From: a virus
Taxonomy: Duplodnaviria > Heunggongvirae > Uroviricota > Caudoviricetes
IMG/VR virus record: IMGVR_UViG_2563366990_000019
Coordinates: 1-21,332 of that record
Strand: one strand, 5' to 3'
Length of the DNA: 21,332 bases
In this document: piece by piece, positions 1 to 6,000 of the stretch
Position numbering within the stretch: position 1 is the stretch's first letter
How the letters are laid out: the number at the start of each line of letters is the position of its first letter
Made by a program: the position numbers

Positions 1-3000
1 ACGCGACTCAAGGTTCTGGCGGAGTTTCTGTTTCAGTGCGCTCAGGACTTCTTCAGAGCGCAGGACTTCCTTCACTGCTTCAGCAGTGACCAGGGATGTG
101 ATTTCTGACATGGGATTTTCTCGCTGAAAGGGGTTGTTAAGGAGTAACGGGCTCTTCGGGTTTGCTTCCGGCTGACTGACTGGCGCTGATTTTCTCAGCG
201 GCCCTTTTATCAATCTGCCTGCACCAGAAATCGCGCACAGCCCTGTACCCACCCGAAAGAAGATACAGCACACAGACCGCCGTACAGAAGTACAGCATCA
301 CCTGATGAATAAATGTCATAATTTCTTACCGTTATGGTTGACTAAGTAAACAGTTTTCATTTAAAAATGCCGATGACGAAAGTGGTAGTATCTTTCCTTG
401 ATTCTCCATGAATCTCACACCGCCAGAGGTCTCAGGCAACTGGCGGCTTTTTTTATCATGCCGCGGCATCCGCGTTGTTCACTTCCACCTTCACACTGTC
501 AATCAGCAGCGTATATGTCGCCGCCTTTGATATGCCTGTCAGTTGCAGTTTGTCCGCCGCCCCTGATGCCGGAGATTTCACCAGTGTGAACGGTGTACCC
601 CGTTTCTCATCCAGTACCGGCGTCACCTGAATGCTGTTGTTTCCGGCAAACTCAAAAGCCAGTGTGTGCCATCCGTTATCAAAGACCCCGAACGTATCCA
701 GCTTCGCATTCTGCTTCTTGTGGTACATCGCGTTCAGGTTCGTCGCATCCGTCTGCAGGAAGAAGGACATCAGCATGTCGTTGCCTTCCTCTGACAGCGT
801 CACTCCCTCCGGCAGGGACGACAACTGCCAGTAAATACCCAGGGCAAACTGATTCGGCACCAGTGCGCCCGGCACCTTAAACCGCACGCTCACACGTCCG
901 CCTTTCTTCAGCAACTCTGCCCCCTTCCCGGCGGCATCATGCTCCAGAAACCAGATGTGGCTTTCCGGTTTGTTCAGTTGCAGGGCCTTACCACCGGTGG
1001 CACCCTCATCACTGACCACGGCCTCAGCGATGTTTTTATCAACACTGTCTCCGCTCGCCGGTTTGTGATAATAGCGCCAGCCCTGTGATGCCAGGTCTTC
1101 ACCGGACGCCAGCAGACTCATCAGGGTTCGGTTACTGACCGGGGCTTCCGGCTCTCTCTCCGGGCCTTCACCGGAAGGTCCGGTGGGCTTCACCGTATCA
1201 GGCTGTTTTCCGGTAATGAATTCAGCGGTTCTCCCGGCATGCACCAGAATCGCCGTTGCCAGACGGTCGGAAATAATCCCACGGCGAGCCCATGAACTGA
1301 AATGGCTGGCCCTGTCCACAGATGTCCAGGTCTTCTGGTCATTACGCCACTTTGAACCGTAATAACCGACGGCTTCCAGGTCCGGGTCTTCTGCCGGGTC
1401 ATTGGTCTGCACATTCGCACCATTCTCATCCGTCATTAACGGTACAAAGAAAATGTTCTGCGACTCCTTACCCTTATACCCTCCGTATACTGATGCATAC
1501 CCTTCCGCATGACGCTGCTTCCAGAAATACGTTGTGTCCCCGCAAACCCACGGTACCGCTGATGCGCTGCCTCCTGTGCTCTGTGATGCCTGACCGGCAA
1601 GGTCCGTTCTGAACTGATTCACCATCGCACTAAACAGCCCCGGATGCTGCGCATGCGTCCCCACTGCCGCATCACCTTCTCCCTGCATCCACACCACCGC
1701 AAGCAGACGGTTTTTCGGGTTCTTCGCCAGTGCGGCTTTAGTCCGGCTCACCAAATCCTGATACAGCGGCTTACCCACACCCCAGCGCAGTGAATTTTCC
1801 GATGCACCGGCTGATTCGCTGTATGTGCCGTCTGCACCCGTTGTGAATGCCGAAGCACCACGGCAGCACGGAACCAGCAGAATGCCCGCATTCGCCGGTA
1901 TAAACGGCAGCAGTTTTTTGGCGATATGCAGCCCCTGCCCCACGGTTCCGTACTGCCCCTTTGACAGGTCCGCTTTCGGATGGTTAAGACGGCTCATGTC
2001 CTGCACATCATGCAGACAATGGTCCGCCGGAATAATGTCGTTATACTTACAGGCGGCACCACCCGGTGTCACCGTACTGCGGCGCGCCAGCTGCTTAATA
2101 CGCGGGTCCGGACGGTCATATGTCTCCGGCAGCGGAAGGCCTTCACCATATGCCATGCTGTTTGACTGCCCCGCCAGAACCACAACAAAGTAATACTCGG
2201 GGTCGCTGGTGGCGCTGATTACTGCACCTTCTCCACCTGTCGGCTTCACCACAACAGGTGTGCTCACATCACCTTCTGCGACAATCGCCTGAATAAGTGC
2301 TGCGCCATCATCCGTATACGAAGAAAACGGCCCGCCGTATGGTTGCCATCCTTCACGAATTTTTTGAGCAAGTGCATCAGCAAGGTCTGACGGCGACGCC
2401 GCCCTGACCACATCGTAGTGTTTAAATGTCATGAATCCTCCCGGCCGGGATAGTGTACTGAATCAGATAAAGAGCGGGCTGAGGTCCGGAAGTTAAAGGA
2501 CAATGACAGAAGGAAGACTACAGCCCGCAATACGAAAAAGGCCGCGCAGTTGCGCAGAGTGATTACTGTCGGGTATTATTCGCCAGCTGAAATATTACTT
2601 CACGTTTTGTTGTTTATTCCTTGCCGCCCGCGTCTCCTGGCGCGGGCTTTTTTTATCCATAAAAAAGCCCCTCCGGAGAGGGGCTGACGCTGCGTATCTG
2701 TATCATGATGTACATGGTGCCGGGTGCCTCCCGGTGAGTTCGGCCCGGTGCCACCGAACCCGCGTCGATAATGAATCACAAGTAAGGATTTTTCACCAGT
2801 CGCCCCTCCGCACAGGGGGATTCGCCATGCGATGCGATTTTTAACAAATTCGCCATCAGCCAGACAATCATCAACTTACGAAATTGTGAGGCATTTAAAA
2901 ATTTCAATGATTAACTGATACTCTGCTAACCACCCGTTGTTTTCTTTTTCAGCGACAAAAAGGCCCACCGAAGCGAGACAGAAAAATCAATGTGGCGCGT

Positions 3001-6000
3001 TGTACTGGATTCGAACCAGTGACCGATTGCTTAGAAGGCAATTGCTCTGTCCGGCTGAGCTAACAACGCATGAAGTTTTCTGTAATCATCCTCGTTTGGT
3101 AACTGCCACTGGCTGACACTGAACCAGTGCGATGTCATGTTTTTCTTTCCTGTTTTATTAATTTTTCCCAGCAGAAGACAAGAAAAAAGGTTCCGGTGTT
3201 ATCGGAACCTTTCAGCAGTAAGCATACAATTATAGACGCTATAACCATAACATATTTTTTTGTGCGCACACAACCCTTTCAGGTAGTACAACTTCAGGAT
3301 CCATATCCAACCTTACTCCCTGCAGAGTCAGAGCTCCTTCCAGAAATGCTTCAGACGCCTTCAGGGATGTCCGTACGCTAAGATGACTACGGTCTATCGC
3401 CTCAGCAATTGCACGCGTTGAGAGGCCGCCTATAAAACGTAACCCCAGGATCAGCAAATCATCGTACGGGCAAACCATACTCATATGCGCGATGCAGGTA
3501 TCAATCACCGCTCCGTCCTCGTCAGAGCAACCGGGTTTGCCACTATCGGTTACGTCCCGGGAAGTAACCGACATTGAGGGCCAGTCAACCATTGAACAGT
3601 ATTCCTCGCTCGCCGCCCATCGCCCCCACCGCTCCAGAACAAGTTGCATATCTCTACGCATAACGCTGGCCTCTACGTTTTGCTACGAAAAAATTTTCTG
3701 AGAACTACGTCTGTTTATCCGCATCGGGTTTATTGGGGCTCGTTAAGCAGCATAATATGCTCCGAAAGCACTTCCAGTGTGTCATCAATCCGTTGGTTAG
3801 CTAACACAAGTCCCCGTAAGTGCATTGCAGCTTCATCTAAGCCCGCTGTTTGCATAAAGGCAGCAACTAATTCAGGGTGTTGCTTCGCATAGCCCTTTCC
3901 AAAAAGCTCATCTATCGCTATTACGGCGTCTGACATCCACCCACTTGCCGTTTTTGCTGCCTGTTCCGCTAACGTATCCGCACTTGGTAATCTTGCACAG
4001 GTTGTATTCATGTTTTTACTCCGTTTGGTTATTTGTGATTTTCTGCAAGTTTTCTTTACTCAACCTTTTTTTACGGGCAAAAGGTTGAGTAACCTAAAAA
4101 ACATAAAAATCATACTCTTACTCAACCTACTCAACCTTTTGGAAAAATAAAATTCTTACATACATGCGTGCGCGCACGCGTATATTTATATAAAATAGTT
4201 GAGTAGGTTGAGTGGTTGAGTAATATCATGATTTTAATACCATTTTTCTTACTCAACCTACCCTTGTGAGGTTGAGTAGGTTGAGTAACAACCTGCAAAA
4301 ATCTACAAACTTGTAGTTATTTGCATTTTTCCCAGCTGCGAGGCTTACCCGGTAAACTTTGCAACTGTTTATTTTTGTAACCAAGCTTCTTCATGATTGC
4401 TGCAATTTTCATTTCGTCACTGCGTTTTACCTGGGGGGCTTTGAAGCCAATCGCCTCGACCAATACGTCTTTTGACGTAAGGGGGACGCGTTCGCAGTTC
4501 TTTTTCGTGCCGTCGGCAGCCATATCGTACAGATCCTGTGGCAACTCTAACCACTCAGCGACGCATGACATCCAGACCTCATCTTTGACCTCATAATCCC
4601 CAAGAATAGACTTAGCCAGTGTTTCAGCGTTCTCCCATGCGATGCCATCACGTTTAAAAACGGCGACTGCTTCAGCCCAAAGCTGTATTTTTTCGTCAGC
4701 GATACCCTGAGCGATAAACTTGCCGTCAGTCTCATCCGGTATCGTCATCGGCAACCAACGGCGGTTACCTTCGGTATCTGTCAATGGCGTATCGGAGTTA
4801 GAAGTACCAATAAAACCGCAACGCCTCGGTAAAGTGACATAGTGCTCCCGAAACAACCCGCGGTTGCGGTCTGCACGGGTGGATATGGTGACACGAACAT
4901 CACCAATACCCCGTTTATCCATACCGCGCATCTCACCAAGCTCAATAACGTTATGCCCTCGCATCTCACGAATGCGCTCCTCTCCCTTCTTACCGAAGTC
5001 CAGTTCCATGTAATGCTCAGGGGTTGGAGCCATTGCACGGATACCTTCGGACTTGTTCTTACCCTGTTGGCTGACAAGGATCACAGCCATGTCCCCTTTA
5101 ATGCCAGGAACCAGAGCTCGACCCGCGAGCAAAGTCCACCAGTAGCGCCCGACTGCGTGGGTGTAGGCGTTGGCCTCGATACCCCAGTGCCGACAGAAGA
5201 AAGTATCTATACGGGGAACACCATCCCATGCAGGAAGATTGGCAATCCAGTCTTTAAGCGAATCAAAACGGTTTTCATACGCGACCAGGCGCACCGCACG
5301 CCTGATCGCTGCCTCTTCAAATTTCTTGAATCCCAGACATTCGAGCCTAGAGTGCAGCATGGTATAAAACTCATCACGCAACCGCAGGTTTTTCCCCCGT
5401 GGAGTGGTCAGTATTATCTCGTCCCGGAACTCATCAAGGCGGATTTGTACACCGCAGAGATCCGGTCGCCGCAGCGCCAGCAGCACATTGGTAACGGTAC
5501 CTTCTATCCGGTCATTCTTATCACGACTGAACTTAGGCCAGGGAAGATACTCAGGCTTATCGCCATCTTCAGCCACTGTCAAATCTTCGAAGTCCGCCAC
5601 GCGGTAGCCGTATGCATCCAGCCAGTCGGCATCAGTAAGCCCCGCATCGGTGTTGTGCATGCTTTTAAAATGTCCCTGTTCAAATCCCCCCGTCCCTTTT
5701 GGGAAATACTTAATGGATGTTTCGCTGCAACCGTCGCTGTATTCTGACTCATCCCGAAACGGTTTCAGATTGCGGGAACCATCAGAGCTGACTGACAGAG
5801 TCCACCCGTTCGCGTCAAGCCAGTCGGCGACATCATCTGTCGCGGAAGGATCAACACAGGAAAGGTCACGCTGACGTCCTGCACCTGCGGTATAGCTGTC
5901 TTTCACGGGTAAGTTATCCGCCAGACGCTGCCACAGGCTTTCGAGCTGTTCAGATGTAATTTTCAGAGGTTCGCCGGGCAAACCGCAGTCCCACTGAATA

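Follow-up and report, generated by a model that had tools for sequence, protein, structure and literature searches.

In the Shiga toxin (Stx) phages Sp5 of Escherichia coli Sakai and 933W, the late region begins with the antiterminator gene Q933W, followed in order by the late promoter pR', the small RNA (sRNA) StxS, the tRNA genes ileZ-argN-argO, the toxin genes stx2a, the sRNA gene STnc100 and the esterase gene nanS-p. Here we describe the corresponding region of a lambdoid E. coli prophage, found in a 21,332-nucleotide stretch of viral DNA (Caudoviricetes; IMG/VR record IMGVR_UViG_2563366990_000019, positions 1 to 21,332) that we refer to in its full length as the window. The start of late transcription in Sp5 was placed by differential RNA sequencing (dRNA-seq) 258 nt upstream of the 3' end of the terminator tR' (PMC7547250), which corresponds to a -10 element TATCAT, and processing of this transcript yields the 74-nt StxS (PMC7547250). 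Phage 21 (OL657228) is annotated with a -35 element, a Q-binding element (QBE) in the spacer, a -10 element, the start, a sigma-dependent pause element (SDPE) at +2..+8 and a terminator that extends to +50, behind which lie tRNA-Asn and tRNA-Thr. The antiterminators Q21 and Q933W have been treated as one family, PF06530 (preprint 10.1101/651190). STnc100 is located 75 nt downstream of the stx2 operon (PMC12370729), its published position being also upstream of the esterase gene, and PasD1 and PasD2 of enteropathogenic E. coli (EPEC) are Hfq-dependent sRNAs validated by Northern blot and by RNA interaction by ligation and sequencing (RIL-seq) (PMC8550237). In our search of the literature, neither a transcript map for late promoters of the Stx2b type nor a defined binding site for Q933W was found.

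We consider it quite probable that the interval examined controls the late genes of a lambdoid E. coli prophage whose type usually bears stx2b and which is present here in a stx-negative state. When 5,426 complete E. coli genomes were searched with the Q module (window 3070-4320, at least 99% identity), the module was recovered from 10 genomes, nine of which have stx2 directly past the tRNA gene (eight annotated as Stx2b and one as the a/c/d subtype), SI-NP020 being the one without stx. IMG/VR contigs with an identical Q also bear stxA2b. The annotated order in two of the 10 genomes is VapE primase, hypothetical gene, Q, methyltransferase remnant, tRNA-Arg, stxA2b, stxB2b, about 520 bp and the esterase gene, and the Stx2b prophages of JNEC-KY176 and STEC1590 resemble the window in having VapE-type primase, hypothetical gene, Q, remnant, tRNA-Arg, STnc100 and esterase in the same succession. 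They differ from it in their allele of STnc100 and in a 1,348-bp stx2b cassette, in place of which the window has 67 bp. The initial annotation of the window had proposed that its Q, tRNA and esterase genes mirror the arrangement of Stx phages around a cargo slot from which stx is missing, and the comparison with Stx and non-Stx prophages bears this out. All features of the late region lie on the minus strand, except for one plus-strand terminator, and are as follows, in the direction of late transcription:

3661..3239, minus: antiterminator gene Q, an open reading frame (ORF) of 140 aa with stop codon TAG at 3241-3239, Q21/Q933W family
3273..3244, minus: predicted late promoter pR', overlapping the last Q codons, from conservation and layout
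3273..3268, minus: -35-like TTGTGT, part of the predicted pR'
between TTGTGT and TATGGT, minus: 18-nt spacer with dyad and A-tract, part of the predicted pR'
3269..3262 (10-bp form 3270..3261), minus: dyad GTGCGCAC, with an A7 tract at 3261..3255, candidate Q-binding element, from covariation
3252..3251, minus: TG of an extended -10, part of the predicted pR'
3249..3244, minus: -10 TATGGT, part of the predicted pR'
3234..3229, minus: TATAAT, predicted SDPE at +4..+9, 9 nt past the upstream -10 (the candidate -10 of the initial annotation)
3213..3180, minus: intrinsic terminator tR', 11-bp stem and U-run (hairpin 3213..3185, T-run to about 3183)
3153..3098, minus: internal remnant of a phage DNA methyltransferase gene, between tR' and the tRNA gene
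3069..2993, minus: tRNA-Arg(UCU), argO type (ARAGORN, anticodon TCT; Rfam tRNA, 70.1 bits)
2977..2957, minus: small hairpin and T-run directly past the tRNA, left edge of the variable module
2956..2890, minus: cargo slot, 67-bp "empty-site" allele between the tRNA hairpin and STnc100, from blastn against the Stx2b prophage
2860..2655, minus: STnc100 (RF02076)/PasD-family sRNA gene, with its own terminator at 2685..2666
2626..2647, plus: intrinsic terminator convergent with that of STnc100, right edge of the variable module
2654..2433, minus: esterase leader, 222 bp, with a hairpin at 2557..2542 and the ribosome-binding site GGGAGG at 2442..2437
2432..456, minus: NanS-p-type sialate O-acetylesterase gene, 658 aa, the first late ORF (Pfam DUF1737, SASA and DUF6645)

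The limits of the variable module were set by blastn against the Stx2b prophage of E. coli JNEC-KY176 (NZ_AP045172.1 1403290-1412541, here L011). Window 4400..2957 corresponds to L011 3921..5366 at 99.2% identity and window 2889..440 to L011 6715..9171 at about 96%; between these two matches lie 67 bp in the window and, in L011, the 1,348 bp with stxA2b and stxB2b. In Stx2a phages too, homology picks up again at 2889, and the small hairpin that ends at 2957 is conserved in front of stxA in both Stx2a and Stx2b phages. The slot had been put at about 560 bp in the initial annotation; only 67 bp of this (2956-2890) are replaced by the stx2b cassette. The window interval contains no match to stxA2b, and neither stxA nor stxB occurs between the tRNA and esterase genes, so that the locus does not qualify as Stx-converting.

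The absence of the toxin genes could be ascribed to an internal deletion of stx2b from a Stx2b phage, the 560 bp being the scar. Such an origin would agree with the near-identity of both flanks to the Stx2b prophage (99.2% over 4400..2957 and about 99-100% from 2622 downwards) and with the presence of stx2 in 9/10 genomes carrying the Q module. However, the 67 bp do not derive from the stx cassette, inside which they have no match, and are 81% identical to the same spot in another stx-negative prophage, that of E. coli 99RCEF (L003). Moreover, the adjoining STnc100 allele is only about 70-84% identical, in pieces, and divergence extends to about 2623; near-identity to L011 resumes at about 2622, with 2622..2433 being 100% identical. 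Judged from this alignment, the module exchanged relative to the Stx2b prophage is 2956..~2623, inclusive of the different STnc100 allele. As this allele lies within the divergent segment, a module swap by recombination would fit better than a clean deletion of stx, and we hold the deletion to be highly improbable.

Other stx-negative prophages that resemble Stx phages (phi296, 99RCEF and SI-NP020) are like the window in having one or more tRNA genes, a short spacer, STnc100 and the esterase gene without toxin. Most of them differ by another type of Q and by three tRNA genes preceded by an intact methyltransferase gene, SI-NP020 (L042) being the only stx-negative prophage of those compared that shares the Q module of the window, with an 835-bp gap between tRNA and esterase (L042 4695-5529). 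In E. coli FORC_043, TerB-family and DUF3927 genes are found between argO and STnc100 (L200 1217-1809), which is the position of stx in Stx phages.

The Q gene noted in the initial annotation (140 aa) is confirmed as a member of PF06530: its product matches this Pfam profile over positions 1-118/118 (E 6.6e-31, 107 bits against a cut-off of 26), and Q21 and Q933W both score in the same profile. E. coli annotation lists it as "antiterminator Q family protein" (WP_001561877.1). A search of the PDB with the single Q sequence yielded only a weak match to sigma-factor region 4 and was too weak to reach Q21, so that a profile was needed; one built from 14 Q relatives matches the Q21 structures 6JNX/6P18 at E 1.1e-4, and hhalign pairs Q with Q21 over 81 columns at 93.8% probability. 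Identity is 31% to Q933W and up to 38-39% to the Q of APSE phages, and the most variable portion of the protein is its helix-turn-helix (HTH) region. Directly 3' of Q, both here and in relatives, come a promoter-like block, a terminator and then esterase or lysis genes. Q can be placed in the Q21/Q933W family on this homology, which predicts antitermination at its own pR'.

To define pR', we gathered Q relatives at 60-86% identity from Serratia, Izhakiella, Mixta, Erwinia, E. coli and IMG/VR, which gave 23 distinct sequences around the Q stop codon; a scan of viral sequences with an 18-base promoter pattern contributed one new relative, and the same pattern run against metagenomes gave, among the matches listed, chance matches, none adjoining a Q homologue. 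Three elements, TT(G), CAAAAA and T.TG.TA...T (which can be read as an extended -10, TGnTAnnnT, 18 nt past the TTG hexamer), are invariant or nearly so in 19-23 distinct relatives. The positions of TTG, TG and TAnnnT span codon boundaries and the encoded amino acids differ among relatives. In one relative (L041) the entire block lies 3' of an earlier Q stop and is non-coding, yet it is conserved. A second element, TCTAnAAT, follows 9 nt past the upstream -10 and is kept in 21/23 distinct relatives. A correlation between the stop codon (TAG/TAA) and the form of this second element (TAGAAT/TAAAAT) was also tried and dropped, being true in about half of the sequences.

In the window the second element is the perfect TATAAT at 3234..3229 reported by the initial annotation, although it begins 4 nt past the stop codon rather than 5. 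It had been taken there for the -10 of pR', from which transcription would start at about 3222 and stop at the hairpin 3213..3185, giving an RNA of about 40 nt. The perfect match to consensus, the location 3' of the Q stop, like that of the -10 of Sp5 and phage 21, and the retention of TAnAAT in most relatives are in keeping with this, but TATAAT, unlike TATGGT, is preceded by neither a -35-like hexamer nor a TG, either here or in any of the relatives. A -10 at TATAAT would moreover leave unexplained the invariant TT(G)-N18-TGnTAnnnT block, which lies 15 nt upstream and is kept in L041 even though it is non-coding there, no conserved -10-like pause element would be left between the start and the hairpin, and the geometry would be unlike that of phage 21, where the element adjoining the terminator is the SDPE. 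We accordingly rate TATAAT as -10 as unlikely and TATAAT as more likely a sigma-dependent pause element, on grounds of conservation and analogy. Because TATAAT is without -35 and TG, and because of the geometry of phage 21 and the mapped start of Sp5, TATGGT is the better candidate for the -10, and pR' probably overlaps the last Q codons, with a putative start at about G3237.

The likeness to phage 21 extends to most of the unit: a PF06530 Q, a promoter (predicted in the window) adjoining the 3' end of Q, within the first 10 nt a pause element resembling a -10 (likewise predicted in the window), and then one or more tRNA genes. The terminator ends about 50 nt from the start in phage 21 and about 55-58 nt from the predicted start in the window, and from the end of the pause element to that of the T-run there are about 40 nt in the former and 46 nt in the latter. 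The compactness of pR' and tR', which the initial annotation had called unusual, is thus the annotated layout of a phage with the same Q family, with a terminator to +50 and tRNA genes behind it. The differences are that Q21 is distant (profile E 1.1e-4), that the promoter of phage 21 lies wholly past the Q stop while that of the window overlaps the last codons, that the QBE of phage 21 consists of two direct 8-bp repeats where the window spacer has a dyad and an A-tract, and that its tRNAs are Asn and Thr instead of Arg.

Sp5 and 933W share with the window the Q family, the order of parts, a dyad and A-tract upstream of the -10, argO, and STnc100 upstream of the esterase gene. The TATCAT of Sp5 (L201) lies 6 nt past its dyad and A-tract, and the window-type TATGGT 7 nt past CAAAAA in most relatives, the dyad being 11 nt from the -10 in the window type and 10 nt in Sp5. 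In Sp5 the terminator tR' is 258 nt from the start, so the compact unit of the window is unlike that of Sp5, which also has three tRNA genes and stx2a where the window has one tRNA gene, a methyltransferase remnant and no toxin. Sp5 does contain a perfect terminator-like hairpin with T7 (L201 670-695, approximately +27..+55) at the position of the window's tR'.

The sequence of the dyad in the promoter spacer varies among relatives while its self-complementarity is kept. The 8-mer reads GGGTACCC, GGGCGCCC, GGACGTCC or GTGTACAC, with GGGTGCCC as an intermediate and TGGTCACCA as a form with an odd centre. In 16 distinct sequences 95.3% of cells are complementary, compared to 75.8% in shuffles (0/500 as good), and changes on both sides are seen in 3/4 pairs. 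It has no loop, so an RNA hairpin is impossible: this is a dyad in DNA, centred at about -28. The equivalent place is occupied by TTTACGATCGTAAA in Sp5 (L201 611-624), by TGCGGTCCGCA followed by AAAA in PPyecE_EH1910 and APSE-1 (L205, L204) and by the direct repeats in phage 21; the window spacer has no direct repeats of the Q21 type (two of 8 bp), and no such repeat recurs consistently among relatives. This branch of Q proteins may use the dyad as its Q-binding element. More specifically, though only as a tentative proposal that we think has rather more against it than for it, it could be the QBE of the Q933W branch, bound by two Q protomers in inverted orientation, not on direct repeats as in Q21, with the half-site co-evolving with the HTH region of Q. 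No clean test of co-evolution between dyad and HTH is available, because both are linked within one gene. If the proposal is true, each phage lineage, including Stx2a and Stx2b phages, would have a private switch for late genes and toxin.

The terminator that the initial annotation had placed just past TATAAT is substantiated, the hairpin 3213..3185 having 11 pairs and a T-run. It folds at -16.2 kcal/mol (z = -4.25, 0/200 shuffles as good) and is in the same position in all relatives, with two pairs changed on both sides, distant relatives having different hairpins. Across 2300-3800 there are six terminator-like sites, compared to 1.5 +/- 1.1 in shuffles. This hairpin might merely end the early transcript of Q, the late promoter being elsewhere, for instance between the tRNA and esterase genes; no consensus promoter is called beside Q, and a separate promoter drives the tRNAs in Sp5. 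Against such an arrangement, the block adjoining Q is conserved across genera in the pattern expected of a Q cassette, relatives without tRNA, STnc100 or esterase retain block and terminator directly before lysis genes, and pR' is always beside Q in cassettes of the Q family. A late promoter at another place seems very unlikely on this evidence, and a pR' beside Q remains our preferred reading.

Joined together, the stx-negative Stx2b-type late region, the model of pR', pause and tR', and the 67-bp slot with STnc100 make up what we regard, with good confidence, as the best explanation of the locus. Q would act at the promoter overlapping its own last codons, where transcription would probably start at about G3237 and RNA polymerase with sigma70 would pause at the consensus -10-like TATAAT (+4..+9). 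Without Q, transcription would end at the hairpin 3213..3185 and an RNA about 55-58 nt long would be released; once Q is loaded at the pause, polymerase would be expected to read through the hairpin, the methyltransferase remnant, tRNA-Arg(UCU), and STnc100 with its terminator into the esterase and lysis genes.

Several points weigh against this explanation: 1) neither promoter model passes a simple sigma70 consensus scan on the minus strand, for which no promoter was called within 2300-3800, so that the promoter assignment rests on conservation and analogy; 2) the upstream promoter matches consensus at 3/6 and 4/6 positions, and the downstream TATAAT, as a perfect -10, could fire by itself; 3) the second element is degenerate in 2/23 relatives (TGGAAT, AATAAT), which weakens a pause element as much as a promoter; 4) the proposed Q-binding site lacks the direct repeats of phage 21, which makes that analogy incomplete; 5) start site, pause and terminator efficiency are predictions for this type of phage, made from sequence; 6) a promoter for STnc100 was not identified; and 7) stx may have been either gained or lost at this site.

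Between tR' and the tRNA gene, 3153..3098 is 87.5% identical to L003 2282-2337, which lies within an intact methyltransferase gene, and matches phrog_6952 (E 1.5e-7); the Prokaryotic Genome Annotation Pipeline (PGAP) has "site-specific DNA-methyltransferase, incomplete" at this spot in relatives. Most Stx-like phages have an intact methyltransferase gene here, followed by ileZ, argN and argO, of which the window lineage keeps only argO. The tRNA-Arg(UCU) gene noted in the initial annotation is recovered by both ARAGORN and Rfam, is of the argO type of Stx phages, and is 100% identical to the tRNA gene of phi296 and of Stx2b prophages. The initial annotation had further linked this tRNA to AGA codons near the starts of genes. 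Codon 3 of Q is indeed AGA, but the link to Q carries little weight. AGA and AGG occur at 3.4 and 5.4 per 1000 codons in 15 ORFs of the window, together 13.5% of Arg codons; the highest density among the genes counted is that of stxA2b in a relative (9/26 Arg codons). With this main user of AGA/AGG absent here, the proposed connection is weak.

The DNA between the slot and the esterase gene is occupied by an RNA gene. The full-length Rfam model of STnc100 (positions 1-206/206) matches 2860..2655 with 162.4 bits, compared to a gathering score of 47 (E 4.8e-37), and STnc100 occupies the equivalent position, downstream of stxB or of the tRNA gene, in L001 (a Stx2a phage), L002, L003, L011, L012 and L015. 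Examples of this placement include the stx-negative phi296 and Stx2b prophages. The window allele shares only 76-86% identity with the copies compared from E. coli phages. Like STnc100/PasD1-PasD2, it has a full-length model match, its own terminator and a place directly upstream of a sialate esterase gene; 2860..2655 is an STnc100/PasD-family sRNA gene, whose RNA may be expressed and bind Hfq as PasD1 and PasD2 do. A scan of 2350-3350 with Rfam at low threshold added nothing credible, AsxR, AgvB and Esr41 being absent. The initial annotation was right that 2433-2992 holds no ORF of at least 60 aa (the longest overlapping one has 59 aa), but wrong to see only hairpins there, as a full-length STnc100 gene and a conserved esterase leader fill it. 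The back-to-back pair of terminators it described is real in that two opposed terminators are present, but the minus-strand one (2685-2666) belongs to the STnc100 gene.

Small proteins or a degraded gene could be sought in this interval instead of an RNA. A plus-strand ORF at 2734-2844 matches phrog_24488, of unknown function (E 6.6e-18), and PHANOTATE called three short ORFs here in phi296. That ORF is, however, antisense to STnc100 and truncated, its match being confined to positions 16-48 of the 55 in the PHROG profile, and we rejected it as a real gene. Nine short ORFs of the interval had no match in a Pfam scan with E up to 10, PGAP annotates nothing here in E. coli, and the covariance-model match is full length at 162 bits. 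A protein-coding interval is hardly credible on these grounds; the simplest view of phrog_24488 is that spurious ORFs, called on a conserved RNA gene, were grouped into a family, and we retain STnc100 for this DNA.

The copy number of the sRNA region varies, with two tandem STnc100 in 99RCEF (L003 3215-3831). On the opposite strand, 2550-2654 could encode a small RNA antisense to the esterase leader, with a promoter-like TTGCGC-18-TATTAT at 2550-2579, a U-rich body and the terminator 2626-2647 closing it (fold z = -2.75); the region is conserved in E. coli phages, conservation that does not assign a strand. The esterase leader itself is highly conserved in Stx2a and phi296 phages, and a fold of 233 nt of it was no better than shuffles (z = -0.15). 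In relatives the esterase is annotated as NanS, yjhS or DUF6645.

The prophage is a mosaic: its early and immunity region (window 5551-19266) shares 97% identity with the E. coli phages vB_EcoM-689R2, 611R5 and 606R2, and its late region resembles that of Stx phages, at about 85%. At 4050-4295, between a 93-aa ORF and the VapE-type primase gene, an AT-rich centre is surrounded by a dense array of about a dozen 9-10 bp units (AGGTTGAGTA / TACTCAACCT) in either orientation, and the whole looks like an iteron replication origin. At 11292-11477 on the plus strand, an Rfam isrK match (54.4 bits) is directly followed by a C4 antisense RNA (76.1 bits), the immunity RNA arrangement of the P1/P7 type, just upstream of ORF 11492-12292.

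The architecture of this locus was already known, and the locus is a new member of it, ordinary but instructive; the known picture of lambdoid late regulation is unchanged by these results. What it offers is a near-isogenic stx-negative partner for Stx2b prophages, which gives the boundaries of the toxin cassette at the level of single bases: one lies just past the tRNA hairpin and the other either inside the STnc100 region or immediately upstream of it, the trailing sRNA allele travelling with the toxin cassette. This can be of use in the study of stx gain and loss, and in the annotation of "empty" late regions where hypothetical ORFs are still being called on a conserved sRNA gene. The Q subtype to which the predicted promoter, pause site and terminator belong controls stx2b expression in the relatives of this prophage.

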